Source of the DNA: Candidatus Leptovillus gracilis
Lineage (GTDB): Bacteria > Chloroflexota > Anaerolineae > Promineifilales > Promineifilaceae
DNA length: 64,000 nucleotides
Assembly: GCA_016716065.1 (NCBI GenBank)
Contig: JADJXA010000025.1
Coordinates: 292,863-356,862 of the forward strand
Direction of reading: 5' to 3'
A program made the translations under genes and the position numbers. The notes beneath the pieces are model-generated. The model was given only the letters and a program-made list of their open reading frames with translations, did not search any database and had not been told where the DNA came from. This document shows positions 1 through 64,000 of this stretch, one piece after another (position 1 is the stretch's first letter; each line of letters starts with the position of its first letter).

Positions 1-1183
1 TCATAACCAGGTCTTCGAGTTGGCGGTTGATGCGCTTCTGCCGGCCCTTAGGCCGCTGCTGGTGCTGTCCCCCATAACTGTTGGGTAGCTGCCAGGCCAG
101 ATAGCTCTTACCTTGCTTGCCTTGTTCGCCGCGATAATCTCTTAACTCAAACAATGCCTGCCCTTGATGCCAGGCCCGTTCCTCCTTGTTCATCTCACTG
201 GCCGTTTCGCCTATGGCGAAGTTGGCCTGCGGACGCAACCTCAGCCGCGCTTCATAGGCCCGTTGACTCGACCGCCCTACTCCACTAAGGCCGGCCAATG
301 TGTCGCGAGCGATGGGCACCGCCTGTCCTTCAGGTGATCTCCCCTTTGTCGCGCCGCTTCCTGCTCGCACGCGGCCGCTATGGAAGGCCGCGTACAGATG
401 GGCGCGGAAGGCGCCAATGCCTTCCAGCAAAGCGTTTACCGGCAAGGCCACCGGTCGGCCACTCAAGCGTGCGACGCCCAACACATGGGCGACTCGCGCC
501 GTCGAATGCAGCCAGATGTGTGTTTTATCCCGTGTCCAAAACAGCCCCTCCCCATCTCGCAGCAGATTGCGCATTTGCCGTTTGCCACAGAGATATAGCT
601 CTGAGTTTCTGTTGGTGAGTTGTTGTCGGATAATGTCTACGCGAAATACACCCCGGCCTTCAGGGTCGAGATGATGCAGCATAAGCCAGAGCCGTCCCGG
701 CGCGCTCATCTCATGGCGCAGCATAGCCAGGCCGATGTCCGGATATAGTTTGACAGATGGGCAACACGGAAGTCTTTCCGGCGGTAGGCCACCAGACGCG
801 GCCTGGGGAGCGAAACGCGCACCAGGCGACACATCGTCCCCGGCTGGCGGTTGAGGCATCACGGGCATAACAGCCCGGCGGAGAACGGCCGCCAGAGGCT
901 CGCTCCCCCACCCCAGATGAGCCGGCAGGCTGGCGATGATCTGAGGCAAAGCGGCCGTTTCCGGGCATGGAACGGCCGCGGAGAAACCGCGCTCCCCATC
1001 GGCCGGAGACGCAGCAGCCAGGCGCACCACAGGCTCAGGGTTCGCCTGTGGTCGGGCCAGAGCAGACTGCTCTGCGAGCGCGCAAGCTGCCGGGCGCTGC
1101 GCCTGAGTTTGTGTCCGCAGCTGATACAGCCGACGATTGGCCGCCAGCAGTTCTGGCGACGCCGCGGTCATACAGTCGTCCAT
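1..1183 (-). CDS. Partial HTH-containing Rep-like/mobile-element protein; the 3' end runs off the window. Paralog of 17442..18935.
   Basis: Own minus-strand translation from ATG at 1183: MDDCMTAASPELLAANRRLYQL...LPAHLGWGSEPL...GRLWLMLHHLDPEGRG...AFRAHLYAAFHSGR...LAGLSGVGRSSQRAYEARL...WQLPNSYGG. It aligns block by block with the 497-aa ORF at 17442..18935. The frame is still open at position 1. Confidence 0.6.
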   Translation of the reverse strand, partial: MDDCMTAASPELLAANRRLYQLRTQTQAQRPAACALAEQSALARPQANPEPVVRLAAASPADGERGFSAAVPCPETAALPQIIASLPAHLGWGSEPLAAVLRRAVMPVMPQPPAGDDVSPGARFAPQAASGGLPPERLPCCPSVKLYPDIGLAMLRHEMSAPGRLWLMLHHLDPEGRGVFRVDIIRQQLTNRNSELYLCGKRQMRNLLRDGEGLFWTRDKTHIWLHSTARVAHVLGVARLSGRPVALPVNALLEGIGAFRAHLYAAFHSGRVRAGSGATKGRSPEGQAVPIARDTLAGLSGVGRSSQRAYEARLRLRPQANFAIGETASEMNKEERAWHQGQALFELRDYRGEQGKQGKSYLAWQLPNSYGGQHQQRPKGRQKRINRQLEDLVM

Positions 1184-1239
1184 GCGGCAGTCACGGGCCA
1201 ACCGATGCGGTCAATGGTTGTACACGCATGTGACAACTA

Positions 1240-2541: not shown

Positions 2542-4983
2542 TTATTCGTACATACCTCCGAGCATGGCTTCATCTCCTGAAGCCCCGACGAATGTTTTAC
2601 GCGAGGGATCGGGAGGAAGGGGGCAGCGCAGCAGCACGTGGGTCCCCCGAGGGGTGTTTTCCATTACCTGCAAGTCTCCACCCACAGAATGCGCCCGTTC
2701 GTGCATCCCCACAATCCCCATACAACGCCGCCGAATAAGATCGTTGACGGACAGACCCGCTGCGGCCGTGCCCCGGCCGTCATCCACCACTTCCAACAAC
2801 AGCATTTCATCGTCCCATACCAGCGTGACAAATGCGGAGTTTGCTGCGGCGTGTTTGACAACGTTGTGCAGCGATTCGGTGATGATATGGCAGACAGGCA
2901 TTATCAGGTCTACCGGTACAACGCTCGCGTCTCCCGTCACTTCGACCGTGACGGGCAGCCCATAATCTTGACGAAACTGACGTACGACAGAATTTACCGC
3001 CATCGGCAATTCCTGCTCCAGCACGGGCGGATATAAACCCAGACAAATACCGCGCAGCGTATCCCCTGTCAACAGCAGTTCGTCTATGCCCCGCCCCAAA
3101 TCGGCCACAACTTGCTGCCTGTTCCAGTCACCGGGGGTAGTGCGAATCTTATCAAGCAGGTTGGTGATAAAAAACATGCGCTGCAAGGGATCGTCGTGAA
3201 TCTCCTGGGCAATCCGCTTCCGCTCCTGTTCTCGGACCAGCATAATTCGGCGCCCCAACCAGCGCGTCGCTTCAAAGAGGTAAATATTTTCGCTGGCGAC
3301 CGCGAGAATTCTGGCAACACGCGCCACAAACGTGACCTGCCCAAAATTGAAATAACCGTCTATATTGGGCCGCCCTAACGCCAACAGGCCCACCGCTTCT
3401 CCCCGAACCGTGATGGGGACTATCAACTCCGTCCAATCAAAAAGCGACAACAGTGGGTGGCTCTGGGGATGCAGCGCCGTTCGCACCAGCGGCGCCGTCA
3501 ATGTAGGCAAAATCAACTGCGCCTGGGCAATCAGGTCCATCGTCGTTTCACCGACTATCGGCCGCAGGTCCCCCTGCTCGTCTTTTAAGATCATCATGAC
3601 CCGGTTGCTGCCCAAGATGCGCGCCACAGAGGTGGCCACCTGCTCTATCGTCTCAAACTCCGGATGGTTGGACAGGTCCGTAGCAAATTCAACCAGGCGT
3701 TCTTGTTCGCCGGCAATACGGCCGTATAACAGCCGCTGCATACTCTGGCTCATCGGGCGATTGGCATACAGGGCAAAAAGCAGCGCAGGCACAAATACCA
3801 CGGTCGACTGGATGACGCCACCCCCAGCGGTTTCTAACCCCAGCCAATGTCGCCCCAGGTAAAGCGTCAAGGCATACAGGCAACCGATACCCATCGTCAA
3901 AACCAACAGGTGCAGGGCGCGGCTAAAAAAGAGGTCTAGTCCCAAAAAACCTTTACGGTATATCACAAACAGATACCCGACGGGGATGAAAATCATCAGG
4001 GCGATGGCGACAGGAAAGGATAGCAGCGTGACGTCGGCCAATGCTTTGGGAACGATTGTCAACAACATAGTGGGAAAAACGCCTAACAAAAAGAAAAACA
4101 GCAAAATCCACAACTGCTGGCGCAGATAGGACGCCGGCGGTAGGCGCAGGACACGCCAGAACAAAATAACCACACAGGTTATCAGGCTCGCCGCCATCGC
4201 CAGAAAGCTGAGATCATAAAGGCTGATGCCTACGATTTCCTCAAAGCTGGTCGGCTGGGGAAACAGAACCAACACTTCGTAAGCAGCCAGAGCCGCCAGG
4301 AGCGAGGCCAGTAGCAGCAGCACGCCCAGCGTTTGGCGCGCGCGCCCACTGAGCTGGTCTACACGCGGCAAAAAGCCCAAATAGACCCAACCCACAGCCA
4401 GGAAATAAATCATGACGTGGCCGGTCACCCAGGCGCCCGGCGTGCCGGACAGCGAGGCTTGAATGCCGATCAGCACCGACGCCGACAGCAAGAAAATATA
4501 CCCGGTATGCAACGCCTGCCGGTTTTCCCTTTGCACTAAAAACAGCATCAGGCTGCCAACCAACCAGCCAACCACCGCCAACAAAGAAGACGGCGCGAGA
4601 AACCAGACAAACCGTTCATCAAACGAGCCGGACACAGGCACAAGGAGAGAAAGCGTCTCACCGTCCCGTTGTACTAAAAATGTGTAGGCGTCCTGGTGCG
4701 GCAAGGGAAAAAAGGGGGACATGCGGCGTATCGCCTGGCCCTCAATGGCCACCACCACATCACCTACTTGCAGCGGTGACTCTGGGTGCGTGTGATGCGC
4801 ATTATGAATGACCGAACGGGAATCTGTGTACCAGATCATCAGTGGGGCGCCGGGCGGGTTACCCCACCAGATGTAGATCAGGCAGTAGCCCACAAACAAC
4901 AATGAAAGGGCGGCCGCAACCATACGCCCATGGTAGAGGCCGGTATTGATCTGTTTTGTCACGTCGGAACGCTTCATAACCAT
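2542..4983 (-). CDS. Membrane sensor histidine kinase, NarL-partner (HisKA_3) type, with a multi-TM N-terminus and a GAF-like domain
   Basis: Many hydrophobic segments in residues about 20-420. H-box ERKRIAQEIHDDPLQ. HATPase motifs HNVVKHA, EVVDDGRG and GMHERAHSVGGDL. Confidence 0.85.
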   Translation of the reverse strand: MVMKRSDVTKQINTGLYHGRMVAAALSLLFVGYCLIYIWWGNPPGAPLMIWYTDSRSVIHNAHHTHPESPLQVGDVVVAIEGQAIRRMSPFFPLPHQDAYTFLVQRDGETLSLLVPVSGSFDERFVWFLAPSSLLAVVGWLVGSLMLFLVQRENRQALHTGYIFLLSASVLIGIQASLSGTPGAWVTGHVMIYFLAVGWVYLGFLPRVDQLSGRARQTLGVLLLLASLLAALAAYEVLVLFPQPTSFEEIVGISLYDLSFLAMAASLITCVVILFWRVLRLPPASYLRQQLWILLFFFLLGVFPTMLLTIVPKALADVTLLSFPVAIALMIFIPVGYLFVIYRKGFLGLDLFFSRALHLLVLTMGIGCLYALTLYLGRHWLGLETAGGGVIQSTVVFVPALLFALYANRPMSQSMQRLLYGRIAGEQERLVEFATDLSNHPEFETIEQVATSVARILGSNRVMMILKDEQGDLRPIVGETTMDLIAQAQLILPTLTAPLVRTALHPQSHPLLSLFDWTELIVPITVRGEAVGLLALGRPNIDGYFNFGQVTFVARVARILAVASENIYLFEATRWLGRRIMLVREQERKRIAQEIHDDPLQRMFFITNLLDKIRTTPGDWNRQQVVADLGRGIDELLLTGDTLRGICLGLYPPVLEQELPMAVNSVVRQFRQDYGLPVTVEVTGDASVVPVDLIMPVCHIITESLHNVVKHAAANSAFVTLVWDDEMLLLEVVDDGRGTAAAGLSVNDLIRRRCMGIVGMHERAHSVGGDLQVMENTPRGTHVLLRCPLPPDPSRKTFVGASGDEAMLGGMYE

Positions 4984-6045: not shown

Positions 6046-6720
6046 AAACACCTCGCTCTTTGTGTAGTTTGAGTTGGGTTTCAACCGCCGTCAGGCAAAA
6101 TACGACAGCGGTATAGACCGTATAAGGTGACAAATGAAGACGGCCGTGTCCCGCCGGGCAGCCCAAAAAGCCGATCGGAGATTGGGCGTTTAGGCGAACT
6201 ACTTAAACAATGATGGGGGATCCACAGCGGGAATCGTGTCATTTATCTCGCTTACAAGGAATCAGCGACGAAACAACAGCGCTGTTTGGGGATGGGTAGA
6301 CGAGCGGGTCAGGTAATCAACAAGCCGCCCGTATCAAGCGGTTGAACCCCGGCCGGTTTTGCCTGACGCCTGCGGTATCCAACGGGGGAAATTGTACAAA
6401 CCTGCCGGTTCTTGTCAAATCTTGCACCTGGCTTTCTGGTCTGTCACGCCGCCACAGCCCCACCGCTGTGGCCCGTACTGGCAATTTGGGCTTAACAGCC
6501 AATTAGAAAGTATGGGCATTAACCGCTTGCGTGCACGCACCAACACTGGATTCTTTATTAAAGTCCAGGGATCGCTCCTTGCTTTATGGCACACGCAAGC
6601 GATCAAAAATTAGCAATTACGGTTACGCACGGTTTTCGCGTAAGGTGGTGGCAAATGAATAGGGCGCAGGCTGGATGGCCTGATCCAAGTTGTGGCATGA
6701 GTCGCCGGGGGCGAACACGC

Positions 6721-8445
6721 TCAAGAAGTGCGCTGCTGCTGTGGTAGGCGTTTTCTTACGTGGTAGGCCAGCGGCGCGCCGACCATTCCCAGGACGATCA
6801 TGCTGGCCGAGCAGGGACCGGCGGCATTGACGGATGGTGTGGCCGGTCCCTTGGTGGGGGCGGCGTCGCTAACGGCCGTTTCCCCTCCCCCCGTCTCCTC
6901 TACCTCAGCCGTCGGCATGGTCGCCGCCGGCATGGCCGCGGCCGCCTCATCTACCCCCAGGCTGAGGTCATCCACCCAAATAACGCCGTTGCTCGTCGTG
7001 TCGGGGTGCGTGCTAAAACCAAAGGCCAGGCCGCTTACCCGATCAGCGTCGGTAAACGGCGCGCCGGCGTTCTCTTCCCAATCCACACGGTGGAAATCGG
7101 CCCAGCGCAGATGCACAGGAATCCAATTGTCCACACTGTCCGGCGGGGTTTCCAGAACATAGGCGTAAGTTTCGCGCGCCTCTTCCGGCCCGGCGTAAAG
7201 GTCTATGTTGACCAGAAGCCCGGCCGATGCCGCTTGCAGGCGAAAGCTGAGGCCGGCGGCGCTTTGCCACGCTGGCGCGGCGTCGAAGAAGTGGGCGCAG
7301 GTGGCCCAACTGTTGGCGGCCACGTCGAACTCAATCTGCATGACCTTGCCGCTGCCCGCCGGGTCGGCTGCCGGGGCGCAGGCGAAGCGGGTGAGAGTGG
7401 TTTCGTCCCAGAACGCTTCCCATCCCTGGTTTGTTTCAAAGTTATCCAGGAGTGTGGCGGGGAGAACGGCCGTTTCCACCACCTCCTCCTCTGTCACCGC
7501 CATCTCCGTTTCCGCTTCTACTTCTACGACCGGTTCCACCGTGGGCAGCGGTGATGCGGCCTCGCTTTGCCAACGATGGTAGAAGACGTTGAGCATGGGC
7601 ACAAATTCGGCCGTCGCTTTGCGGCTGCCTTCCACCGAGGGATGATCATCGTCGGAGGGGTAATACAGCGTATCCTGGCTGCCCGCCGCATGTTCGATGG
7701 TCCCACTCACCACCTGATGATGCGCGTCAGGGTCGGTGAGGATGTTGTAGAAATCAAACACGGCTACGTTGTTGTACGGGTAGTCATTTTCGCGCAGCCA
7801 ATCGTTGACCAGCCATTGGTTAAATGCTCGCGCATTTTCCGGAATGGATGGCGCCGACAGGGGCGGCGCGGTGATGACGACGAACAGCTTGTCCGGGCGC
7901 GTGGCGAAGTATTGCAAAATCTCGTTGTACACCCATTTGGCGTTGCCGACGGTGAAATCGTAGCCTGGCGTGGGCGCGTCATCGGGGCTGCCGTAGAGGT
8001 CGGAATTGGGGAAGCAAGATTTGAACAACACAATCTGGTTCTCGCCGCCAGGATCGGCAAAGGTGCGCGTGTAATTGGCGTGCTGCTCGCTTTCGCTCAA
8101 CAGCGCCGCCATGTAACGCGGCGTCGCGGCGCTGCGAAACCATTCCGGCCAGTTGGGGATGTCGGTGCGGTCGCCGATGCTATCCGGCCCCCAGCCGTAG
8201 TTGGTGTCGCTGACGAAGTAGTTGTTTTGCGCCAGCGCCAGCCCCAGGTCGCCGTAGCCATCGGTGAGCCAGTTTTCGCCGGTGGAATGGTGGATGAAGA
8301 CGAGTTTGACGGGTGATGCCGGCGGCGCGGGATTGTCGGCCAGAGGTTGTACGGCTTCCGTGATGAGCGCGCCTGTCTTATCTACTGTGCCGATGATTAG
8401 AAGCGCCACTACGGCTAATATCCCCAACAGAAGGTTGTTTCTCAT
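6721..8445 (-). CDS. Secreted/anchored protein of unknown function, with an N-terminal signal anchor, a possible C-terminal carbohydrate-binding-like domain and a C-terminal TM helix
   Basis: MRNNLLLGILAVVALLIIG signal anchor preceded by aaggaag. An Ala/Glu-rich linker. C-terminal hydrophobic SMIVLGMVGAPLAY followed by basic residues. Function not recognised. Confidence 0.6.
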   Translation of the reverse strand: MRNNLLLGILAVVALLIIGTVDKTGALITEAVQPLADNPAPPASPVKLVFIHHSTGENWLTDGYGDLGLALAQNNYFVSDTNYGWGPDSIGDRTDIPNWPEWFRSAATPRYMAALLSESEQHANYTRTFADPGGENQIVLFKSCFPNSDLYGSPDDAPTPGYDFTVGNAKWVYNEILQYFATRPDKLFVVITAPPLSAPSIPENARAFNQWLVNDWLRENDYPYNNVAVFDFYNILTDPDAHHQVVSGTIEHAAGSQDTLYYPSDDDHPSVEGSRKATAEFVPMLNVFYHRWQSEAASPLPTVEPVVEVEAETEMAVTEEEVVETAVLPATLLDNFETNQGWEAFWDETTLTRFACAPAADPAGSGKVMQIEFDVAANSWATCAHFFDAAPAWQSAAGLSFRLQAASAGLLVNIDLYAGPEEARETYAYVLETPPDSVDNWIPVHLRWADFHRVDWEENAGAPFTDADRVSGLAFGFSTHPDTTSNGVIWVDDLSLGVDEAAAAMPAATMPTAEVEETGGGETAVSDAAPTKGPATPSVNAAGPCSASMIVLGMVGAPLAYHVRKRLPQQQRTS

Positions 8446-8813
8446 AACTTCCTTGCCGGGTAGAGCGGGGAAGCCCACCCCACCGCTAAATGACCAGCCA
8501 AAAACCAGTTTGTCATGACCGCTTGAGTCGCCCAAATTGCGCAAAGTGAGCCAGGCCCTGACGTGTAAGATGCCAGCGTGAAACACACTGAGGGTAAGGT
8601 ACACCAAGGGAAACGGCCGTGTCACGTGTCAAAAGTCACAACCGGCGGGGTTTCCATAGAGTAAGCCAACTATCCACAGGAGCGTTCCAGAAGAATATCC
8701 CCCCAGACCTCAGGAATAGCGGCCCCGTTTTGCGCCCCTGCTTCGGCCAAACTCCAATCCCTACTTATTGGACGCTTTTTGGACGCCCCATCCATACAAT
8801 GCCGGAAAGAGCT

Positions 8814-9026: not shown

Positions 9027-11458
9027 AAAAACGTTGGCTTGTTCTCTTTACTTTGGTTTTGCTGATTGCCGCGGCTTTTACCGTGCAGGCTCAGAGCGAT
9101 GAGCAGCCAGCCGCCCTGGCGACGCCTCTAGGGCCGCAGTTCACCTATCAGGGGCAGCTCAAGGATGAAATGGACGCGCCCATCAACGACACCTGTGACC
9201 TGACGTTTGGCCTGTGGGATGCGGCCAGTGGTGGTGCGCAGGTTGGTTCGGACAGTGTGGTGAGCGGGGTGGCGGTGGCGGAGGGGTATTTTACGGCCGT
9301 TCTCAACACCACCGGTCAGTTTGGCAGCAGCGCCTTCAACGGCGAAGCCCGCTGGCTGGAAACGGCCGTGCGCTGCCCGACCGGCGGCGGCGAATACACC
9401 GCGCTTTCGCCCCGGCAGCCGTTGGACGCCGCGCCGCTTGCCAATTACGCGCTCCGTGCGCCCTGGAACGGGGTGGCCGGCATACCTACCGGCTTCGCCG
9501 ACGGCGTGGACAACGATACCACCTACACCGCCGGGACCGGCTTAACCCTGACCGGCGCTCAGTTCAGCGCCGACCTGAGTCTGATACAGCAGCGCGTGGC
9601 CGGTGTTTGTGGCGCGGGCTTCGCCATTCGCCAGGTAAACGGGGATGGCAGCGTGACGTGTGAACCCGTCACCGGCGGCGGCGCGCATACCCATTGGGGC
9701 GAAAGCTGGAGTGGCAGCGGGACCGGCCTCACCCTTTCCGGCGGCAGCGTTGGCCTTTCGGGCAGCGGCAGCACGGCCGGGGTGTCGGGCACCACCAGCG
9801 TGTCCAATAGTGCGGGCGTGAGCGGCAGCAACAGCGCCACAAGCGGTACTGGCGCAGGCGTATCCGGTCAGTCGGCGGCGACAGATGGGCGAGGGGTAAC
9901 GGGCAGCAATACGGCCGTTACCGGGCAGAACTACGGCGTCTACGGCACGGCCGCCTCTACATCCGGGCGCGGCGTCACCGGTCATGCTACGGCAACCACC
10001 GGCGGCGCTATTGGCGTCACGGGGCAATCTGATTCAACGTCTGGGCGCGGCGTTTACGGCTATGCCTCGGCCGCCAGCGGCACGACCTCTGGCGTCTATG
10101 GGCAGGTTGCTTCCACCGATGGCTGGGCGGGTTACTTCCATACCACCGTCGGCAATGGCCTCTACATCAATGCGCCGGCCGGTAAAGTTGGCCTTAACGT
10201 CGCGGGCGGCGGCTCGGCTCTGGTGAACGGCAACGCCATCTGGCACGCGGGCAACGACGGCGCGGCCTCCGGCCTGGACGCCGATACGCTGGATGGGCAG
10301 CACGCCAGCAGCTTCGCCGCCACAAGCCACAACCATTGGGGCGCAAATTGGAGTGGAACAGGAACTGGCATATCGCTTAGTGGCAGCGGAACCGGCATCT
10401 ACGCCACCGTTTCTTCAGAGATGGGGGTTGGGTTTTATGGAGTTGCCAGCTCATCTACCGGCACTGGCATTGGCGTTCTGGGCCGGACAGCTTCGACGGG
10501 CGGCTATGGCGTGTGGGGAGATGCGAACGCTACCAGCGGCGAAGCCTATGGCGTTTATGGAACGACTGACTCACCGGATGGCGCCGGGCTATATGGCTCG
10601 AATAGCTCCCCATCTGGGAATGGGATTGGCGTGTATGGCATAACTGCATCGGCAAATGAAGGCGCTGGCGTTTATGGCGAAACGGGATCATCGATTGGTT
10701 ATGGGGTTTATGGTCACAATACGGCCACGCAAGCACAAGCCTACGGCGTATATGGCCGATCCGAGTCGGTGTATGGGATTGGTGTACAGGGGAATGCTAA
10801 CTACATAGGCGCAGAGGGTCTCGCCGCTCGGTTTGGCGTGATTGGGTACGGATACGCAGACAATGGGATTGGCGTGCGCGGATCCGGGGGTCAAATTGGC
10901 GTGGAGGGATACAGTTCTGATGGGATTGGCGTGGAGGGATACAGTAGTGATGGGGTTGCCCTGGCTGCTACTGGCACTGGCGTCATCAGCTCCACCGCTG
11001 ACACGGCCATCTACCTCAGCCCCTTTACCGCCACGCGCCGCGACGCTTTCACCGATCTGACCTTCACCCCGCTGGATAACGGCGGCGTGCGCGTGAAAAA
11101 GGTGGGCGCAGCCACCGGGGAGCGGTTGGTGGTCTTGCCGATCTCTGCTGCCGGCATGGTCTTCGGAACACCCGTGTACGTCAAATCGCTGGAGATTTGC
11201 TACAAAACCAGCGCGGTCGCCGGTTACATCACCGGAACTGGTATGTACAAAGGGAATGGCGAAAGTTATGCCACCTATCTGAGCAACGGCACAGATTACA
11301 ACAGCACCACCCGGACATGCTATACGATCAACGCGGCGACCCGCGCCGTGATTGATAATTCGAGCTACGTGCAGTTACACCTTTACTTCAACAACACCAC
11401 CGAACCCGAAATTACCATTTTCACGGTCAAACTAACTTTGAGCGAGTTGCCCGAATAA
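9023..11458 (+). CDS. Secreted glycine-rich repeat protein, tail-fibre/surface-fibre-like
   Basis: Signal peptide MKKRWLVLFTLVLLIAAAFTVQAQS. N-terminal FTYQGQLKD...DLTFGLWDAASGGAQVG motif. Two internal blocks H(T/N)HWG(E/A)(S/N)WSG(S/T)GTG(L/I)(T/S)LSG, each followed by dozens of G-x-GV(Y/T)G repeats. Confidence 0.75.
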   Translation: MKKRWLVLFTLVLLIAAAFTVQAQSDEQPAALATPLGPQFTYQGQLKDEMDAPINDTCDLTFGLWDAASGGAQVGSDSVVSGVAVAEGYFTAVLNTTGQFGSSAFNGEARWLETAVRCPTGGGEYTALSPRQPLDAAPLANYALRAPWNGVAGIPTGFADGVDNDTTYTAGTGLTLTGAQFSADLSLIQQRVAGVCGAGFAIRQVNGDGSVTCEPVTGGGAHTHWGESWSGSGTGLTLSGGSVGLSGSGSTAGVSGTTSVSNSAGVSGSNSATSGTGAGVSGQSAATDGRGVTGSNTAVTGQNYGVYGTAASTSGRGVTGHATATTGGAIGVTGQSDSTSGRGVYGYASAASGTTSGVYGQVASTDGWAGYFHTTVGNGLYINAPAGKVGLNVAGGGSALVNGNAIWHAGNDGAASGLDADTLDGQHASSFAATSHNHWGANWSGTGTGISLSGSGTGIYATVSSEMGVGFYGVASSSTGTGIGVLGRTASTGGYGVWGDANATSGEAYGVYGTTDSPDGAGLYGSNSSPSGNGIGVYGITASANEGAGVYGETGSSIGYGVYGHNTATQAQAYGVYGRSESVYGIGVQGNANYIGAEGLAARFGVIGYGYADNGIGVRGSGGQIGVEGYSSDGIGVEGYSSDGVALAATGTGVISSTADTAIYLSPFTATRRDAFTDLTFTPLDNGGVRVKKVGAATGERLVVLPISAAGMVFGTPVYVKSLEICYKTSAVAGYITGTGMYKGNGESYATYLSNGTDYNSTTRTCYTINAATRAVIDNSSYVQLHLYFNNTTEPEITIFTVKLTLSELPE

Positions 11459-19850: not shown

Positions 19851-19861
19851 CTGGAAGCTGG

Positions 19862-43597: not shown

Positions 43598-43601
43598 GGC
43601 A

Positions 43602-52095: not shown

Positions 52096-52099
52096 ATCA

Positions 52100-54351: not shown

Positions 54352-54386
54352 TTTCCTATTTGGGCAAAATCTTAAATAATAGTCGT

Positions 54387-54581: not shown

Positions 54582-56935
54582 GTTTCTCGCTCCTTGTAAG
54601 ATCCTTCTTCTGTTTCAACCAGATGCAGACGTAAGGCGGTGTACACATCAGGCACTAACATCCGTATCTCTTCCTGTACTTCAGGAGACACTTCCGTCAA
54701 AGCCACGCTCTCACCACGTCGCCAGGCATCAACCACCCGACTTGTGCGATCTGATAAGGTTGTAGACCCCGCCTGTTCACATTGCTCGATATAACGCTGG
54801 ACCTGGCTCAATACGTTGGCTAACGGCCGTCCCTCCAGCAAATAATCCTTGTCTATTTCTGACACATCCATCTGGGCCAATCTGGAAAACCACGTCTCAT
54901 AAGGTACGTCTTTCAACAATTGCCCAATGAGAACACTATCGTAAAACCCCTGACGCAACTCGAAAAAATCATCGAACAGAAACTGAAATGCCTGCCAGCT
55001 CCTGTCACTGATTTGTTCATGCCGCCACCGATAACGCTGATGCGTGTCATTGACCCAACACCAGAAATCAGCAGGAAAACCTGGTAAACGGTAGGCTCCT
55101 TCGCCTTTGACAACCAGGGCAAATGTTTGCAATACTAACGCCAGCAGCTCCACCTTCATACCCAACTGAGTCTCAAGATCAAGCCTTACACGTTGGCGAT
55201 AGTTGTCTGCTGTCATTTGCAAAGAGACAAGCTCTTTGGCCGTCGCCAATTGTTCTTGTAACTTTTTCGTTTCACTGCCGGTCGCTGTTCCGTACCGGCA
55301 TAAGTCGAAAGCTATCATGCCAATATCGCGCGTTAGCGCGATGCCATCCTGTGCTTCATCTACTCCTTCCAGATAAATGGGCAGGCGCACATCCAGATAC
55401 GTTTTGCGCCAGCGTAGCGCGCCACGCGGCTTGGCTACATGCTCCCGATATATCCAGTCAATGGGCTGCACAGTGCGCAGCCAACGTGCCGCACCCTGAC
55501 GCAAGGACCGCAGCATCTGCCGGTTGACCGACTTGCCCAGAAGCCAGTCTCTAACAACCATCTGGCTTTCGTCCTCAATGATCAGGCTGCTCGTTGCTTC
55601 GCGGGGCTGGTAAAAACGAATGAGAGGCTCAACGGGAATTGCCCTTTGTTCTGCGGTAATGGCGAAGGCCAGCAGCAGAGTTCCCGGCAGAGCAATCAGA
55701 TTATCACTGTCTGGCTCCAACAAAGGTCCGTAAAACTCGCACAAACGCGCCAGACGACTGTCTTCCACTCTGGCGATATATTCCGGCCGAGCGAAATCTA
55801 CCAGCACATCCAACGGGTCTTCACCCGTGGTAGTGCGCCGCAATATCTCGTGCAGATACCGAACAAAATACCGTACTTTCCCTTTACCCGCAGGCAAAGC
55901 GCGGTAAATGCGCACCAGCGCTTCCCGCGTGAATGGGAAATAGGGCAGGCCCGGTACAGTGTTGTCATTCATCTCTGTCAGATAGCGAGATGCAAACTCA
56001 TCACAGTTTGCTTCGGTTAAGACGTAAGACTCCTTGCCCGTTTCATCTGACAACCACATTTTCCCGACACGGTCATCTATCGTGTCCAGATGGCTGATGC
56101 GCTGCAACAATCCGCGGCCGCGCAAGCTATCTTCAAACGCGGCTGGCGTTAGCCCTAAAACAACGTCCCAGTTACCTGCTTCCAACGTCAGGAGGTAATC
56201 CAGTAGATCAGTGGCAAAGATATTAAGGGATTGCACCAAATCGTCCACCAGCAAAAGAGGCCGCTGTCCCTGTTCTGCCTGACAATGATACGAAATACGC
56301 TGCATCGTTTCAGCCAGCGATAGACCTTCCAGCAGATGGTCACGAAAAGCGGTGGTCAATTGATGACGGAACTGTTCGTAAGCTACCGGAACGGGCAGGG
56401 ATGTTTCTCGAAGAATAGCCGACCAGGTTTCCTGACCAATCAGCTCCACGCCCATAGACTCGTCTATATCTCCTGGTTCAAACGCCAGGATTCTGTCTAC
56501 GTGTGGTTGCAGCGCATTCAGCAAGCGGTAGAAAAGAGCGTTGATCAGGTCATCCGAATCGAGAAGGTTCTCCAGAGCGAACAAGAGAATCATTTTAGTG
56601 ACCGTGCGCGATTTCTGCCGAGCGGCACTCCAGCGCTGTGTCGTCGTTTCGTTGAGAAACTGATTGGGCAACAAAGTCAGGAAACGATTGACGATGCTAA
56701 GAACATCTAGCTCATGGCGCGAAATACGCACCATTACCTGGCCCCGCTGCGGTTCTTCCTGGAGGATGCGCGTCTCTAGCCATTTAATCAGCTCCGATTT
56801 TCCCGATCCCGGGGCGCCGTACAACACCCAGATGCGGTTGCCCAAACCATTCTGTTGCCCCAGAACACGCCGCAGTAACGCATCCTCTGTCAACATTTCG
56901 AGATGGCCGTTAGGCTGATAGCTGCGCATGGTCAT
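54578..56935 (-). CDS. Large P-loop NTPase (unknown family; Walker A context resembles the DpdH-position protein)
   Basis: Walker A IWVLYGAPGSGKSELIKWLE and Walker B RPLLLVDDLV, followed by a long helical C-terminus. The ORF is open up to 57136, but that would overlap the upstream gene by 118 nt. MTMRSYQ at 56935 is chosen; the start is uncertain. Confidence 0.6.
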   Translation of the reverse strand: MTMRSYQPNGHLEMLTEDALLRRVLGQQNGLGNRIWVLYGAPGSGKSELIKWLETRILQEEPQRGQVMVRISRHELDVLSIVNRFLTLLPNQFLNETTTQRWSAARQKSRTVTKMILLFALENLLDSDDLINALFYRLLNALQPHVDRILAFEPGDIDESMGVELIGQETWSAILRETSLPVPVAYEQFRHQLTTAFRDHLLEGLSLAETMQRISYHCQAEQGQRPLLLVDDLVQSLNIFATDLLDYLLTLEAGNWDVVLGLTPAAFEDSLRGRGLLQRISHLDTIDDRVGKMWLSDETGKESYVLTEANCDEFASRYLTEMNDNTVPGLPYFPFTREALVRIYRALPAGKGKVRYFVRYLHEILRRTTTGEDPLDVLVDFARPEYIARVEDSRLARLCEFYGPLLEPDSDNLIALPGTLLLAFAITAEQRAIPVEPLIRFYQPREATSSLIIEDESQMVVRDWLLGKSVNRQMLRSLRQGAARWLRTVQPIDWIYREHVAKPRGALRWRKTYLDVRLPIYLEGVDEAQDGIALTRDIGMIAFDLCRYGTATGSETKKLQEQLATAKELVSLQMTADNYRQRVRLDLETQLGMKVELLALVLQTFALVVKGEGAYRLPGFPADFWCWVNDTHQRYRWRHEQISDRSWQAFQFLFDDFFELRQGFYDSVLIGQLLKDVPYETWFSRLAQMDVSEIDKDYLLEGRPLANVLSQVQRYIEQCEQAGSTTLSDRTSRVVDAWRRGESVALTEVSPEVQEEIRMLVPDVYTALRLHLVETEEGSYKERET

Positions 56936-59003: not shown

Positions 59004-59672
59004 ATGATAGATTCAGTCGTCATTGTCAGTGGGGGAATGGACAGCGTGACCCTGCTGCACTATTTGATCAAAATAGAAAAGCGTAACCCGGCGGTAATCA
59101 CCTTTGGTTACGGACAAAAACATGACAAGGAAATTGAGTACGCCAGGGCACAGGCAACCGCGCTTGGTTGCGAGAACCATCTGGTGCTAGATTTAGCGCT
59201 GCTGCGTCCGCTCTTTGCCAACTCGGCATTGGTATCACTGGAAACGGCCGTGCCCAACATCCAGGATGTTCTTGGCGATCCACAGCCACCAACCTATGTC
59301 CCTAACCGCAACATGATTTTCCTGGCTCTTGCTGCTGCTTTCGCTGAAACGCAAGACGTCAGCGATATTTTTTATGGCGCACAACGCCACGATGTATACG
59401 GATATTGGGATACGACTCCTCAATTCCTGGAGCAATTGAACCAGGTTTATAAACTCAATCGCCGAACGCCGGTGACAATCCTTGCTCCTTTCGTTCAGTA
59501 TTCCAAAGCAGATATTTTGCGTCAGGGTCTCGAAATGGGTGTGGATTACGGCCTCACCTGGTCTTGTTACGAAGGGCGCGAGATGGCTTGCGGCCAATGT
59601 CCCACTTGCGCCGAAAGACTCAAAGCCTTTGAGGAAATGGGCCTGATGGACCCCTTGCCTTATGCAGTATGA
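59004..59672 (+). CDS. queC: 7-cyano-7-deazaguanine (preQ0) synthase
   Basis: VVIVSGGMDSVTLL (PP-loop SGGxDS), FGYGQKHDKEIEYA, YVPNRNMIFL and the C-terminal zinc motif CGQCPTCAERLKAF. Confidence 0.9.
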   Translation: MIDSVVIVSGGMDSVTLLHYLIKIEKRNPAVITFGYGQKHDKEIEYARAQATALGCENHLVLDLALLRPLFANSALVSLETAVPNIQDVLGDPQPPTYVPNRNMIFLALAAAFAETQDVSDIFYGAQRHDVYGYWDTTPQFLEQLNQVYKLNRRTPVTILAPFVQYSKADILRQGLEMGVDYGLTWSCYEGREMACGQCPTCAERLKAFEEMGLMDPLPYAV

Positions 59673-59796
59673 TGGCGCGCCTTTTGGCAAGAGTGTCCCG
59701 ATTGTGATGTGCTTGATGATTGCCTGACAGCAGCAGTGATCTGGACACTCTCAACTTAGCGAAGCAAACCGAAACATAATTCTGAAGGAGAAAGGT

Positions 59797-60309
59797 ATGA
59801 TTTACGTTGTCATGTATCTGGTGGCGATTGTTCTGGCGAATTTGACGGTGGCCGCTTTTGGCCCCAACATGGTCATCATCAATGCTTTTCTGTTCATCGG
59901 GTTGGATCTGACAGCGCGAGACCGGCTACATGATGCCTGGCGGGGCAATCGTTTATTCGTGAAGATGGCTGCTTTAATCGCCGTCGGATCCCTACTGTCC
60001 TGGGTACTCAATCGTAACGCAGGACAGATTGCGCTGGCTTCATTCGTTGCTTTTGCCGCCGCCGCTACGGTAGACGCTGTCGTCTATCATGTGTTGGGCA
60101 AATACCCTCGTTGGTTGCGTATCAATGGCAGTAATATTCCCAGCGCTCTGGTTGATTCGTTGGTCTTTCCTACTTTGGCGTTTGGCGCTTTTCTGCCGTC
60201 TATTGTTTTGGGCCAGTTCATTGCCAAGGTGCTTGGAGGATTTGTATGGTCTCTGGTTTTTCGGTGGACAGAGCAGCGGACAATGGCTAAAGCCAAACAG
60301 CCAAGTTAA
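59797..60309 (+). CDS. yhhQ: VUT/YhhQ-family queuosine-precursor transporter
   Basis: A multi-TM 170-aa protein. ANLTVAAFGP, INAFLFIGLDLTARDRLHD and SALVDSLVFPTLAF match the DUF165/YhhQ pattern. Confidence 0.7.
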   Translation: MIYVVMYLVAIVLANLTVAAFGPNMVIINAFLFIGLDLTARDRLHDAWRGNRLFVKMAALIAVGSLLSWVLNRNAGQIALASFVAFAAAATVDAVVYHVLGKYPRWLRINGSNIPSALVDSLVFPTLAFGAFLPSIVLGQFIAKVLGGFVWSLVFRWTEQRTMAKAKQPS

Positions 60310-60417
60310 TATAACCAACAGGGCTTGAGGGCTGCAATCCATCATCTGCCTGTTTTCCTATCGCCAACGATGAAATAGCGTATCCTGGTAAACGGCCGTT
60401 TGTCTTCAACTCCTTTA

Positions 60418-60861
60418 CTAAACCGCCGATTTTGACCCGATGTACATCATAATTTGCTGCATCAGTTCCACCCAGGAAACTCCATTCACCGTCACTTTTG
60501 AAATCGGCCATAGGAAACGCGGCGCCCAGTGACGCCGGGAATGGGTCGGGATGTCAATGATGATGTGCAAAGCCCAGGCTCCAAGCACGCGACGTGGCAA
60601 ACGGCCGTTTCGCCAATAGATAAACCAGGCCACCAGGACGAGCAAAGGCAGGCTATGGAAGACGTGATGCCCTCCTTCCATCCAGGTAGGCGGATCCGGC
60701 CATTCTTGAGTTTTTAATGCCAATCCTAACTGACCCCGCCTTATTACCCAGGCGGGATACGTCAGGTAGAACGGCGCGTCGGGCAAGACACCAGCCAGGA
60801 GTACAATTGGCTCTCGCCCAAAAACTTTTGCGGTAACTATAAGGTGAGTCAAGGGATCCAT
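60418..60861 (-). CDS. Membrane-bound metal-dependent hydrolase (DUF457/YdjM-like)
   Basis: N-terminal MDPLTHLIV, later HHVFHSL and HIIIDIPTH histidine clusters, and hydrophobic segments. Confidence 0.65.
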   Translation of the reverse strand: MDPLTHLIVTAKVFGREPIVLLAGVLPDAPFYLTYPAWVIRRGQLGLALKTQEWPDPPTWMEGGHHVFHSLPLLVLVAWFIYWRNGRLPRRVLGAWALHIIIDIPTHSRRHWAPRFLWPISKVTVNGVSWVELMQQIMMYIGSKSAV

Positions 60862-61116
60862 GACTGCCTTTTTCCATTTGTCTCGTTGTCGCCAAGCGGT
60901 ACGTCAGCGTCTGGTCGGGCCAAACAATCCGCCTGGTGTGCTTTCGTCCATAAACCGGGCGGAGTGAAGGTCGTTTCATTCTGCCCGGAAAAGGGCAACG
61001 GCCGTTTCCATCCTTTCATAGGTGTAACCATGGGCTCCCAATCCAAACAAAGTTGGTGGAACGTGCTACCGCGCGAGAAGAGGGCGGGCGCGTTTGCAGC
61101 AAACGACCCCTACCGG

Positions 61117-64000
61117 TCACCCGCCGGGAACACTGGTCAGTGGCCTTGATGAGATGGCCACCACCACCCGAAAACCGAGATAGGCGGCTCGGAGGTCTGG
61201 GTTAAGGTTGTAGCGGAAGGCCGCGCGCGCGAGGTCCGGGCCGCGGTGCCACGAACCGCCGCGCAACACGCGGGAGTCCCGGCTTTGGTCTACGCCATCC
61301 GCTTCCGGTTCGCCATATTTGTTCCGACACCATTCCCATACATTGCCGCTCAGGTCATATAGTTCCAACGCCTCATTTTTACCGGATGGATACAAGCCAA
61401 CGGCCGTTGGCTGCCCAATCCTCCCCTCGTCTATGTTCGCCCAGTCTGTGTTAAAGCGGCTGCCCCAGGGGTAAAAACGGCCGTCAGGATACCTTGCCGC
61501 CGCTTCCCACTCAAACTCATGCGGCAGACGAATGTCCATCTCTAGCTTATCGCTCAGCCAGCGGCAAAAGGCCACCGCCTGATACCAGCTTACCGTCTCG
61601 CGGGGATGATTGGCGTAAGGAAATTCGGGTTCAGAAAACTGTCGTTCGTCATCGGGCATACCATCCCACCACTTCGGTTCATCCCGGTCGGGCGCATCCA
61701 CAAAGCATTTAAACTGGGCGTTGGTGATGGGATAACGCGCCAAACAAATATCATGCGGGATGGTCACTTGCTGCTGTGTAAGGCTCACATAAGCCTCTTC
61801 GTCCCCTCCGATTGTGTAGCGCCCGGCTTCCAGCCAATTTCCCCAGGCAATGTCCGGTAGCTTTACCTCGCCGCGCTCCACCACGCCTACACCGGGGCGG
61901 GTATCTTCAAGCCAGCGCCCCAAGGCGTGGCCGGCTTGGGCCCGATGCGCTGGTTTCAGGCTGCTTTCGGCCACCAACGCCGCCTCCAGCCAAGCACGCC
62001 CGCCCGCTTCCACCAGCACAAAAGGATGTTCCACCTCCTTGCCACGCACAAAACGCATGAAGTTGGTTTCATGAATGGTCTGCGCCGCCAGAACAGCGCA
62101 AAACAACTGCCATTCGGACACATCCGACCGCGGCTGCCCGGCCGTCAGCCGCTCCACCAGCGATTTCACCCGGTAAGCGTCGGCGCGTGCCTGCCCCGCC
62201 GCCAGCAAGAAAATTTCCCGCCACCAGGCGGTATCACGCTGTAACCGCCTGTACAGCCCCTCCACCGGGTCATCTGGCAGCGACCAGACGTGGGCCGCCG
62301 CCAGATACTCCTGAAACGTGCGGTGAGGGAAGACGTAGGTGAAATGCTCTCTGGCTTGCAGCAGCCCAGATCGCTGTTGGATGTAGTCCGTCACTTCTTT
62401 GGCCCGGTCGTAGCTGCCCACCAAGGGCAGCAATCCCTCCCACAATTCGTCACGGCCAATGTCGGCGGCCTGTTCATCCCGGTTGCGCTGCCCTTCCTGC
62501 CGCTCGTGGGCGGCGAAGGCGATCGCTTCCAACACGCTGCGCACCTCTTCCCGCCGCAAATCCAGGCGGGCGATGATGCCGGGTTCCACCTGCCGCGAAC
62601 CATCCGGTCGCCGCACCAGTCGGTTTTCCCAATGGGAAAGGAGCAGATTGATGGCCCGGTCGTACAGGTCGGCGCGGTTTTCCGGCAGGTCTCCATATCG
62701 GCCATGTACTTGGGCCATCAGGGTGAGCAGCAGCGGGTATTGACCCAATTCGCGCAAATGGGGCTTCGCCAGCACCGCGTCGGCCAGCCGTTTCGCCTCT
62801 TGCGCCTGCTGCGGCAAGTCCCACTTCTGGCGCGGGCCGGTGACGCGATACCACGTTTCCGTAAACTGCCGGATTTGCCCCTCCTTGAACAAGGCCAGGT
62901 CAATCACCGGAAATTGTGCTTCTGGCAGCCGCCAGGCGTCGTCTTTTTTGTAGGCATACTCGCGGCAGGTCACGATGACCTTGCAGGTGTCCAGCGGCCC
63001 GGCGAAGTCGGCGATGGTTTGTTTGATCAGGCTGCGACGGCCGTCTACCACGCTCTCCGGCACTTCATCCAGGCCATCAAAGAAGATGACGCCACCATCC
63101 GCCAGCAGTTTTTCTTTGACAGAACTGTACGCCTCCCGGCAGCCCCAATCGGGGAAGAGCTTTTCTTCCAGGTAGCGCCAGACCAGCCCGGCTTTGGTGT
63201 CGGGCTGGTTGTCGCCTACAGTGTCGGCCAGCCAGGCGGCAAAGCGGCGCAGGACGATGCGCACCGGCAGCAGCGGCGTCTCCGGCCAATCCGGCAGAGC
63301 GGTGGGGCCACCGGCAAGGCGCTGCCGCGCCAGGGTGGTTGCCAGGTAGTTGACCAGGGTGCTTTTGCCGCCGCCGGGATAGCCGAGGATGACAACTCGT
63401 GGCAAAGCGCCGGTGACGGAAACGGCCGTGAGAGGCTGTGTCTCTTTTTCTTCTTTGGGGGAACGGCCGTGCGCTGTCTCGTCGGGGAATCTTCGCAGCG
63501 CCTCGGCCACCGTCTGGCCGGGCGCGCGCCGGATCACCTGCGTCCCCCACGCCGCGTACAGGGTGGTGAACACATCGGTCAGCCGCACCTCGCCGCCCTC
63601 GTCATCCAGGAAACGCTCATCCACTTCCGCCAGGTCCAGCCGGTTGCACTGGTCAATCAGGGTTTTCAGATAAGCCGTCTCCCAGGTCTGCTTTTCGGCG
63701 CGGCCGCCCCACTGAAACACGGTTTGCTGCTGGATGATCTGCGGCCCGCTGACCACATTTTCGGCCACGATCCGGCCGGCCTGGATGCCTACGTGTTGGC
63801 CGGGTGAGGCTTGCAGCGCTGCCACCATTTGCCGCATCAAGACCACCATCTGCTGCTGCAAAGCGGTTTGCGCCCAGCCTTGATGCACCTGGATGATGGG
63901 TTGCAGCGCGGTTTCAGCCGCGGCCGTTTCCAGAAAGGCGGCTTCAAAGGCGGCCACCGCTTCGGGGAAGCGCAGGCCGGGCAGCGTCTCCGGGTCGTAG
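61117..64000 (-). CDS. STAND NTPase: NACHT domain fused to a C-terminal FGE/SUMF1 domain. The N-terminus probably lies beyond the window.
   Basis: Walker A VVILGYPGGGKSTLVNYL and Walker B VIFFDGLDEV. The C-terminus carries YPITNAQFKCFVD, TVSWYQAVAFCRWL, RLPHEFEWEAAAR, GNVWEWCRNKY and LRGGSWH. The frame is open upstream of the GTG at 63957 to the window edge. Confidence 0.85.
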   Translation of the reverse strand, partial: YDPETLPGLRFPEAVAAFEAAFLETAAAETALQPIIQVHQGWAQTALQQQMVVLMRQMVAALQASPGQHVGIQAGRIVAENVVSGPQIIQQQTVFQWGGRAEKQTWETAYLKTLIDQCNRLDLAEVDERFLDDEGGEVRLTDVFTTLYAAWGTQVIRRAPGQTVAEALRRFPDETAHGRSPKEEKETQPLTAVSVTGALPRVVILGYPGGGKSTLVNYLATTLARQRLAGGPTALPDWPETPLLPVRIVLRRFAAWLADTVGDNQPDTKAGLVWRYLEEKLFPDWGCREAYSSVKEKLLADGGVIFFDGLDEVPESVVDGRRSLIKQTIADFAGPLDTCKVIVTCREYAYKKDDAWRLPEAQFPVIDLALFKEGQIRQFTETWYRVTGPRQKWDLPQQAQEAKRLADAVLAKPHLRELGQYPLLLTLMAQVHGRYGDLPENRADLYDRAINLLLSHWENRLVRRPDGSRQVEPGIIARLDLRREEVRSVLEAIAFAAHERQEGQRNRDEQAADIGRDELWEGLLPLVGSYDRAKEVTDYIQQRSGLLQAREHFTYVFPHRTFQEYLAAAHVWSLPDDPVEGLYRRLQRDTAWWREIFLLAAGQARADAYRVKSLVERLTAGQPRSDVSEWQLFCAVLAAQTIHETNFMRFVRGKEVEHPFVLVEAGGRAWLEAALVAESSLKPAHRAQAGHALGRWLEDTRPGVGVVERGEVKLPDIAWGNWLEAGRYTIGGDEEAYVSLTQQQVTIPHDICLARYPITNAQFKCFVDAPDRDEPKWWDGMPDDERQFSEPEFPYANHPRETVSWYQAVAFCRWLSDKLEMDIRLPHEFEWEAAARYPDGRFYPWGSRFNTDWANIDEGRIGQPTAVGLYPSGKNEALELYDLSGNVWEWCRNKYGEPEADGVDQSRDSRVLRGGSWHRGPDLARAAFRYNLNPDLRAAYLGFRVVVAISSRPLTSVPGG

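Follow-up and report, generated by a model that had tools for sequence, protein, structure and literature searches.

The 8-bp perfect palindrome ACGGCCGT is a genomic signature word of a clade of Chloroflexota that includes Ardenticatenaceae, Promineifilaceae and Candidatus (Ca.) Leptofilum, where it is maintained at the level of DNA. It is described here from a 64-kb stretch of DNA (the window, meaning the stretch in its entirety), a mobile and defence region coding for ParA, a P22-antirepressor-domain protein, an FtsK/SpoIIIE-like translocase, an FGE-sulfatase-domain protein, a type I restriction-modification (RM) system, a Dpd (7-deazaguanine) cluster with TGT-like and QueC genes, and a NACHT protein. 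The word looks like a previously undescribed counterpart of HIP1, the highly iterated palindrome of cyanobacteria, built on another core, found in another phylum, and reaching conjugative elements and phages. We tentatively read it as a HIP-type palindrome that may well be the recognition site of a clade-specific system dealing with 'own' DNA.

An exact search of the window gives 81 sites (1.27/kb), in keeping with the 80-90 copies estimated in an earlier note on this DNA, the first-pass annotation, whose 16 example coordinates are all off by 3 nt at most. By chance, 1.16 sites would be expected (mean of 100 dinucleotide-preserving shuffles of the window, with a maximum of six). When both strands are counted, 162 occurrences are observed, against expectations under Markov models of the window of 2.6 (order 0), 5.6 (order 3), 16.9 (order 4) and 62 (order 5); the enrichment amounts to 62-fold at order 0, 66-fold at order 1 and 29-fold at order 3. 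The order-3 expectation being 2.8 per strand, the z-score reaches 65.9, compared with 5.7 for the runner-up palindromic octamer, TGTTAACA, and the remaining top-ranked octamers all overlap ACGGCCGT (for example AACGGCCG and AAACGGCC). The sites do cluster in a repeat region, as had been claimed, with eight of them in the array 19843-20103, and the other 73 lie outside it; leaving out the whole dense stretch between 17.3 and 24.65 kb, the density is still about 0.9/kb. The enrichment thus stands far above that of any other palindromic octamer and is not confined to repeats, so that neither of the two outcomes named beforehand as fatal to the claim was found. The density varies with the region: 0.75/kb at 1-12 kb, 0.38/kb in the ParA core (12-17.3 kb), 4.08/kb in the FtsK-like core (17.3-24.65 kb) of what resembles an integrative and conjugative element (ICE), 1.13/kb in the type I RM region, 0.88/kb in the Dpd island and 1.32/kb at 57.2-64 kb. 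The longest stretch free of the word, 12604-17327 (4.7 kb), covers a core of ParA, a small protein and the P22 antirepressor; it is also the segment best conserved with relatives (70-87% nucleotide identity).

The word extends well beyond this region. A first set of loci was assembled by pattern scans for two nearby copies of ACGGCCGT, yielding 98 stretches from IMG/VR and at least 120 metagenome stretches; among those listed, about half of the former and about 70% of the latter are rich in extra copies (0.5-4/kb, with a GC content of 0.43-0.64). The rich metagenome contigs bear ordinary chromosomal genes, coding for DinG, a UvrD/PcrA-like helicase, an ABC permease, a MalT-like regulator or a Ser/Thr kinase, and the closest named relatives of the DinG protein of locus L225 belong to Ardenticatenaceae, Ca. 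Promineifilaceae and Ca. Leptofilum. A second set is blind to the motif, its seven loci having been picked solely because they encode DinG orthologues, with stretches of up to 23 kb per genome. All seven are rich in the word: 1.40 sites/kb on a 6.36-Mb Ca. Leptofilum contig (L303), 1.54 in GCA_039028395.1 (L304), 1.23 in the Ardenticatenaceae assembly GCA_020634565.1 (L305), 0.96 on a 3.49-Mb contig (L306), 1.73 on an ENA scaffold (L307), 1.49 on an ENA contig (L308) and 1.53 in GCA_003696605.1 (L309). Over their combined 148 kb there are 206 sites (1.39/kb), and in each of the seven loci ACGGCCGT is the sole outlier among palindromic octamers. By comparison, 80 unrelated bacterial loci from many phyla, gathered by a ParA pattern scan (ParA proteins 25-32% identical), have 35 sites in 1.35 Mb (0.026/kb), a density some 50-fold lower, and the Chloroflexota loci L002 and L080 have no ACGGCCGT. 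On chromosomes the sites are spaced more evenly than at random: the coefficient of variation is 0.71-0.86 in four loci out of four, and a single gap of 50 nt or less was found where 6.9 would be expected.

The window region itself appears to belong to this clade. Its ParA, of which the assembly index has no entry, has relatives in metagenomes that are 75-95% identical, the named ones being metagenome-assembled genomes of Chloroflexota/Anaerolineales, and word density forms a gradient among relatives of the window element: eight sites in 12 kb where ParA is 89% identical (L083), six in 20.9 kb at 79% (L082) and none in 12.3 kb at 76% (L081). The first-pass annotation had counted 18 copies between 34.7 and 54.4 kb and regarded this low-GC Dpd island as apparently foreign. 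The density stands, with 19 sites as the exact number; reshaping of the island after import from outside is not required, as its GC content (0.49) lies within the range of motif-rich genomes of the clade (0.47-0.55). The island may have come from a relative already carrying ACGGCCGT.

That the force acts on the DNA is apparent from the way in which the word is read in proteins. Between 75% and 92% of ACGGCCGT sites lie in open reading frames (ORFs), and the window has them in every frame, as previously claimed: 35 in frame 0 (ACG GCC GTn, T-A-V), 19 in frame 1 (nAC GGC CGT, x-G-R) and seven in frame 2 (CGG CCG, R-P), with 20 more in intergenic DNA. Four of the motif-blind loci contain 62 T-A-V tripeptides, 59 of them written ACG-GCC-GTN where codon usage predicts 8.2, and 27 N-G-R tripeptides, 26 of them written AAC-GGC-CGT where it predicts 1.3. 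The tripeptides are themselves in excess, T-A-V fivefold and N-G-R sevenfold over the amino-acid expectation, and both exceed their own permutations (which number 8-25 in the case of T-A-V). The window and the larger pool of loci display the same pattern of codons and tripeptides. Because these tripeptides are nearly all encoded by the motif and over-represented as well, the word overrides codon usage and alters protein sequences, inflating T-A-V, N-G-R and R-P peptides, and the suggestion that selection targets the DNA word is borne out.

Individual sites are also conserved, a comparison with orthologues that the first-pass annotation had proposed. Along 12.5 kb of synteny between L303 and L305 (75.5% identity), 11 of 12 sites on one side and 11 of 15 on the other are shared, the background for 8-mers being 0.143; when only windows with identical amino acids are retained, nine of nine sites are identical in nucleotides, against 0.225 for the control (P = 1.5e-6). 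L225 and L307, 87% identical, share all 15 alignable sites (background 0.36, P = 2e-6), and in a three-way comparison of L303, L305 and L309 (64-76% identity) five of 14 site columns are occupied in all three (background 0.015). The window element, set against L310 and L311 (85-87% identity), shares seven of ten sites (background 0.37, P = 0.04), and at its sites it differs from these relatives by single transitions or one transversion. Within dinG, one site is common to all five orthologues and another to four; at lineage-specific sites the relatives have near-cognate words, such as GCGGCCGT and CTGGCCGT, which indicates that sites are gained by point substitution, non-synonymous changes included. 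Identity between orthologues is raised solely at the word and 4 nt on either side (0.875-0.91), and is back to the background level from 5-10 nt outwards, hence a footprint of about 16 bp.

This footprint matches the anatomy of the word. CGGCCG occurs 138 times in the window, 81 times with A and T as flanks, and the other fifteen flank pairs occur one to seven times each, so that the unit is the full octamer. Around it there is a weak palindromic extension in the window, with A at -1 (57%), A at -2 (52%) and G from -3 to -5 (about 45-50%), giving an extended consensus of about 16 bp, GGAA-ACGGCCGT-TTCC; beyond 4-5 nt on either side the flanks carry no information. When the larger pool is split into spacers and the three reading frames, every one of these classes shows the extension, which is therefore a property of the DNA element, not of a peptide. 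The pooled rich loci, 857 kb in all, hold 1567 sites where a background model with the word masked expects 24 (65-fold); this pool includes loci chosen for a pair of motifs, some of them redundant, and the unbiased sets agree with it qualitatively. Within it, one-off variants at positions 1 and 8 (NCGGCCGT) add up to 590, that is, 2-3.8 times the order-3 expectation, compared with 58-91 variants per core position (0.3-1.5 times). The CGGCCG core is the part of the word that tolerates deviation least. In L082 (jgi 3300076801), L100 and L169, CGGCCG is enriched 2.6- to 6-fold over the order-2 expectation without any preference for the A..T flanks, so these relatives have the word in a form reduced to its core, or 'imprecise'.

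Mobile DNA carries the word in abundance. The densest IMG/VR loci (3-4/kb) encode FtsK/SpoIIIE-like, ParA-like and lytic-transglycosylase proteins; they and the 12-24 kb core of the window represent one kind of ICE-like element. Tailed-phage contigs (L105, L109 and L120, with genes for large terminase, portal and head protease) have 1.5-2 sites/kb, structural genes included. Arrays of ACGGCCGT adjoin tra and par genes: one lies on the 3' side of the FtsK-like gene of the window, and another, on L262 (metagenome Ga0209607_1083462, positions 1-1434), packs 18 copies into 1.4 kb (11/kb) upstream of a ParA-like gene. The latter consists of irregular repeats of the AACGGCCGTTTGTGGG type, in which Tandem Repeats Finder detected nothing, and may be a centromere-like array built from ACGGCCGT. 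The related element L083 has no array downstream of its FtsK-like gene. The densities on phages and ICE-like elements suggest that any DNA living in these cells either benefits from the word or is converted to it.

Among known systems, HIP1 (GCGATCGC) is the obvious comparison. It is over-represented 15- to 300-fold, its sites are conserved, its deviations fall at the outer positions and it has a cognate CGATCG methyltransferase (PMC4390886, PMC5861425); the deviations concentrate where GCGATCGC differs from the CGATCG core, and 'imprecise' as well as derivative forms exist (PMC4390886). In Synechococcus, methylated HIP1 raises the efficiency of transformation and recombination (bioRxiv 10.1101/2024.09.10.611283), and a connection between the abundance of HIP1 and genes for DNA uptake is made in a preprint (bioRxiv 10.64898/2026.06.24.733823). 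ACGGCCGT resembles HIP1 and the alternate HIPs in being a GC-rich palindromic octamer, enriched tens of times and present about once per kb, in all frames and in spacers, with a palindromic extension, sites conserved between orthologues, one-off deviations gathered at the two outer positions of a 6-bp core (CGATCG in HIP1, CGGCCG here), and related lineages having 'imprecise' or core-only variants (PMC4390886, PMC5861425). Four features that characterize a HIP-type word, namely enrichment, presence in coding and non-coding DNA, conservation of sites and a bias of deviations towards the outer positions, are found. HIP1 proper also has a periodicity of 10-90 kb along the chromosome, whereas the stretches covered here bear on short-range spacing. 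By contrast with HIP1, ACGGCCGT belongs to Chloroflexota and not to Cyanobacteria, it embeds no GATC and hence has no Dam-type component, and it has been recorded here as abundant on ICE-like elements and phages. HIP1 proper, with its enzymes DmtA and DmtC, was accordingly rejected: the word is ACGGCCGT and the relatives are Chloroflexota (Ardenticatenia/Promineifilales). In the literature, HIPs are a matter of cyanobacteria (PMC4390886, PMC5861425), and full-text searches, which do not cover most subscription journals, returned primer matches and HIP1 papers only, with no published description of ACGGCCGT, in agreement with the first-pass view that this is not a described element. For some 30 years HIP1 has been an unexplained peculiarity of cyanobacteria; the same syndrome in another phylum makes the phenomenon comparative. 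A protein family (methyltransferase, reader, competence or recombination factor) that HIP1-rich cyanobacteria have in common with ACGGCCGT-rich Chloroflexota, and that their word-poor relatives lack, would be a strong functional candidate. The word further offers an easy way of assigning contigs, plasmids and phages, during binning, to a clade abundant in wastewater and sediment and, should it act as methylated HIP1 does, constructs supplied with it could help to transform these filamentous bacteria, which have so far been genetically intractable.

The DNA uptake sequences (DUS) of Neisseria and the uptake signal sequences (USS) of Pasteurellaceae show the same density of about one per kb, the location within genes, the imprint on peptides, the fairly even spacing, the inverted pairs serving as terminator stems and the sharing by a family-level clade with dialect-like variants. 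Terminator stems had been claimed for the window as well, and the inverted pair at 34362/34379, a 15-bp hairpin followed by TTTTT, has the look of one. DUS and USS are, however, asymmetric words of 9-12 nt, which a receptor associated with the pilus reads in one orientation, unlike this perfect palindrome with its symmetric extension, and accumulation driven by transformation does not predict that phages and conjugative elements should be at least as rich as chromosomes. Chi sites, recognized by RecBCD or AddAB, are over-represented short words too, marking 'self' DNA for the machinery of recombination and degradation; a replicon entering the cell would gain from having them, and Chi-like behaviour is invoked by the HIP1 transformation study (bioRxiv 10.1101/2024.09.10.611283). 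Chi is nevertheless asymmetric, co-oriented with replication, skewed between strands and enriched a few-fold, whereas ACGGCCGT is palindromic, enriched about 30- to 65-fold and leaves its imprint on proteins; since a palindrome cannot be strand-skewed, it is not a strand-oriented word of the Chi type. The first-pass reading of a DNA-level word akin to HIP1 or to uptake sequences is supported by codon choice, clade-wide spread and site conservation.

As to mechanism, be it methylation, recombination or uptake, we infer it by analogy. The word would be the recognition site of a clade-specific, probably dimeric, DNA-recognizing system, since the symmetry of the 16-bp footprint suggests a dimeric sequence-specific protein. 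The privileged CGGCCG core, together with the HIP1 precedent of a core-specific methyltransferase, points to methylation, and recognition would most likely combine CGGCCG methylation with a reader, as HIP1 and DmtC would have it; a specific protein binder of GGAAACGGCCGTTTCC would then be expected. DNA bearing the word would pass for 'own' DNA and be given preference when DNA is recombined, repaired or exchanged, much as with Chi sites or uptake sequences. New copies would spread by molecular drive and then be kept by selection, the conservation of individual sites being an indication of selection or of a drive that restores sites. Imitating the signature, or even exaggerating it, would be of advantage to mobile elements and phages. 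A fuller version of this reading can be formulated, in which a second HIP-type system evolved independently outside the cyanobacteria as a clade-wide 'self' tag of filamentous Ardenticatenia/Promineifilales, read by a dimer and possibly dependent on CGGCCG methylation; conjugative elements and phages would actively mimic and exaggerate this tag (their densities reach 4/kb, and arrays are found at tra and par genes) so as to be handled like host DNA by the recombination, degradation or segregation machinery. With all its parts taken together, this version is unlikely, though worth stating.

Several observations weigh against a recognition system for 'own' DNA. Regular-expression screens of about 1 Mb of scattered loci found no cognate methyltransferase for ACGGCCGT, and no reader or uptake receptor was identified. 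The screens turned up N4/N6 methyltransferases on mobile loci and a single C5 cytosine methyltransferase, on the motif-rich chromosomal contig L248 (WBZL01000229.1, 10140-12248), where it adjoins a BsuBI/PstI-family restriction endonuclease. This enzyme, HaeIII-like by sequence and with M.HaeIII as its best solved relative, showed no link to the word: its family is spread at 60-70% identity over Chloroflexota, Cyanobacteria, Acidobacteriota and Betaproteobacteria and is therefore not clade-specific, and its neighbour is of the PstI family. A strong bias of repair towards restoring sites would likewise yield site conservation. A strict uptake model fits poorly, because phages, which are independent of transformation, have a high density; a ComEC gene is present in L305, and such genes are widespread. 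Finally, the unbiased data are those of the seven DinG loci and the window, the pooled statistics coming in part from motif-selected loci, and the window is assigned to the clade on the basis of its Chloroflexota/Anaerolineales-named ParA relatives and of the shared word.

Repair is at the heart of a rather unlikely but serious alternative, in which the word has no function and arises neutrally, from a sequence-specific bias of repair or mutation (for example of the mismatch or very-short-patch type, tied to a CGGCCG methyltransferase) that keeps converting near-cognates. The presence of the word on every type of replicon in these cells, be it chromosome, ICE-like element or phage, is what such a bias would produce, the core is indeed CGGCCG, and a restoring bias, as just said, mimics conservation; Elhai proposed a repair-driven origin for HIP1 (PMC4390886). 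Very-short-patch repair should nonetheless leave a depletion of the TG/CA derivatives of the word, a signature that was not seen in the 857-kb pool: the deamination-type neighbours ATGGCCGT and ACAGCCGT/ACGGCTGT stand at 0.7-0.9 times expectation, which is no clear depletion, and ACGACCGT at 1.5 times. The very-short-patch effects known in Escherichia coli are small. Sites conserved at 64-87% identity with a sharp 16-bp footprint, a spacing more even than random and the acceptance of many non-synonymous changes also argue against neutrality, and Xu et al. similarly argued against neutral replenishment for HIP1 (PMC5861425).

An abundant host protein that organizes the nucleoid or takes part in segregation could be what binds the word, the arrays of mobile elements hitch-hiking on it, and this has a small but real chance of being right. 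Dimeric binders typically leave a palindromic footprint like the one of about 16 bp seen here, the sites are distributed rather evenly along chromosomes, and the arrays sit beside the ParA-like gene of L262 and 3' of the FtsK-like gene of the window; a role in chromosome structure was suggested for HIP1 by Xu et al. (PMC5861425). Here, however, no candidate protein was identified, and the region upstream of parA in the window has no site. The known binding sites of segregation and nucleoid proteins (parS, matS, Noc and SlmA sites) number in the tens, not the thousands, and leave no imprint on the proteome.

The array of the window calls to mind the clt locus of actinomycete conjugative plasmids, where TraB recognition sequences (TRS) form an array of an 8-bp word directly downstream of an FtsK/SpoIIIE-like gene. 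It is improbable that ACGGCCGT is a word of this sort, recognized by FtsK/SpoIIIE-like (TraB-type) conjugative translocases and amplified on chromosomes by conjugative drive. The eight copies immediately 3' of the FtsK/SpoIIIE-like gene occupy the very position of clt in Streptomyces plasmids, 3' of the TraB-type gene, the ICE core has 4.1 sites/kb, and FtsK/SpoIIIE-like genes are found in the densest IMG/VR loci. Yet tailed phages and housekeeping chromosomal loci from seven genomes have 1.0-2.1/kb, less than 4.1/kb and far above expectation, which rules out an element of the clt/TRS type only; TRS are essentially confined to clt, whereas ACGGCCGT is genome- and clade-wide and found on phages too. 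Known TRS, as well as the FtsK-orienting polar sequences (KOPS), are asymmetric. The related element L083 lacks the array, and TTACGACA, beside the array of the window, is a better iteron candidate.

It is very improbable that the word is the target of the Dpd 7-deazaguanine or type I RM system encoded in the window: word and systems do co-occur there, and the centre of the word is G-rich, but it is found throughout the clade in loci without these islands, and restriction targets are normally avoided, not enriched. Type I enzymes, besides, recognize bipartite asymmetric sites. An artefact (copies of repetitive extragenic palindromic (REP) sequences or of miniature inverted-repeat transposable elements (MITEs), a tandem repeat, or selection on a peptide motif) has next to no chance, in spite of the eight sites in the repeat array and of T-A-V being the commonest reading, as REP and MITE repeats are longer, mostly intergenic and conserved in their flanks, while here flank information and conservation end 4 nt out, most sites lie in ORFs and outside the array, all frames and spacers are used and synonymous codons are fixed to the word, evidence that refutes both the MITE/REP and the peptide-selection readings.

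Table. Positions of ACGGCCGT sites in the 64-kb window, with neighbouring features (f0, f1, f2: frames 0, 1, 2; where single numbers are given, they are site starts)
Feature	Coordinates	Reading	Remarks
Site, histidine-kinase ORF	3718..3725	frame 1 (x-G-R)	kept in relative L310
Site	6140..6147	intergenic	kept in relative L310
Extra segment	6465-12105		~5.6 kb relative to L310/L311; ORFs 6721-8625, 8619-9026, 9023-11458
Site	6872..6879	frame 0 (E-T-A-V)	
Site	7466..7473	frame 0 (E-T-A-V)	
Site	8613..8620	frame 2 (R-P)	
Site	9293..9300	frame 0 (T-A-V)	
Site	9362..9369	frame 0 (E-T-A-V)	
Site	9911..9918	frame 0 (T-A-V)	
Site	11807..11814	intergenic	
Site	12372..12379	frame 0 (E-T-A-V)	ACGGCCAT instead in L310
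Site	12596..12603	frame 2 (K-R-P)	kept in L310
Extra segment	15617-17326		~1.7 kb relative to L310/L311; FGE-sulfatase-domain gene 16146-17117
Site	17328..17335	intergenic	kept in L310 and L311
Seven sites, 497-aa ORF 17442-18935(-)	17545, 17592, 17742, 18186, 18304, 18607, 18739	f0, f1, f1, f1, f0, f0, f0	three of five alignable sites kept in L311
Site	19096..19103	frame 0 (T-A-V)	
Iteron field	19337-19840		8-9-nt TTACGACA(A/G), both orientations, 14 of 17 window copies
Two sites, ORF 19423-19782(-)	19504, 19559	f1, f0	ORF overlaps iteron field, may be spurious
Array of eight sites	19843, 19866, 19890, 19945, 19993, 20048, 20072, 20096 (span 19843..20103)		103-nt x2 repeat with 24-nt sub-repeats; one decayed copy, ACGGGCGT, at ~19971; directly 3' of FtsK/SpoIIIE-like gene 20151-22196(-)
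Tandem repeat	20102-20155		8-nt GTCTCC(C/T)(C/T), ~6 copies, between array and FtsK-like stop codon
Two sites, FtsK/SpoIIIE-like gene	21430, 21802 (span 21430..21809)	frame 0	
Three sites, ORF 22190-22645(-)	22319, 22456, 22566	f1, f2, f0	
Site pair	23197..23235	intergenic	hairpin AAACGGCCGTTT...AAACGGCCGTTT, -25 kcal/mol
Four sites upstream of hsdM	24190, 24453, 24555, 24591 (span 24190..24598)	f0, f1, intergenic, intergenic	
Seven sites, type I RM genes and neighbours	25618, 26841, 27269, 29485, 31295, 31486, 32272	f1, f1, f0, f0, f1, f0, f0	
Two sites, DUF6884 gene	33831..34090	frame 0	
Inverted site pair 34362/34379	34357..34392 (+)		15-bp stem, 3-nt loop, then TTTTT; terminator-like, after gene ending at 34331
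Dpd-type cluster and genes beside it	34564-57136 and 57884-60309		DpdA-like TGT protein, DpdH-like protein; beside them second TGT-family gene, QueC, Vut_1 transporter gene
Dpd island, 19 sites	34814, 35713, 37577, 40570, 42103, 42617, 42912, 45213, 45294, 45869, 47647, 49481, 49807, 51115, 51804, 52343, 53392, 53837, 54395 (span 34814..54402)	f1, f0, f2, f0, f0, f1, f1, f0, f0, f2, f0, f1, f0, f0, f2, f0, f0, f1, intergenic	
Site, DpdH-like gene	54823..54830	frame 2	
Four sites	59244, 60392, 60601, 60998 (span 59244..61005)	f0 (QueC), intergenic, f1, intergenic	
Five sites, NACHT/FGE-sulfatase-domain gene	61400, 61477, 63037, 63422, 63463	f0, f1, f1, f0, f1	

Some further features of the window may be mentioned. 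A megablast search of its 12-24 kb part against plasmids gave no match. TTACGACA makes up the second most over-represented word family of the window, and its iteron field, downstream of the FtsK/SpoIIIE-like gene, is likely to be the clt, origin or partition site of the element. The two extra segments that distinguish the window from its 85-87% identical relatives L310 and L311 have either been inserted into the window or been lost by the relatives. The large Dpd-type cluster, the annotation of which was spot-checked, is accompanied by a second gene of the TGT family, by QueC and by the gene of a Vut_1 transporter.

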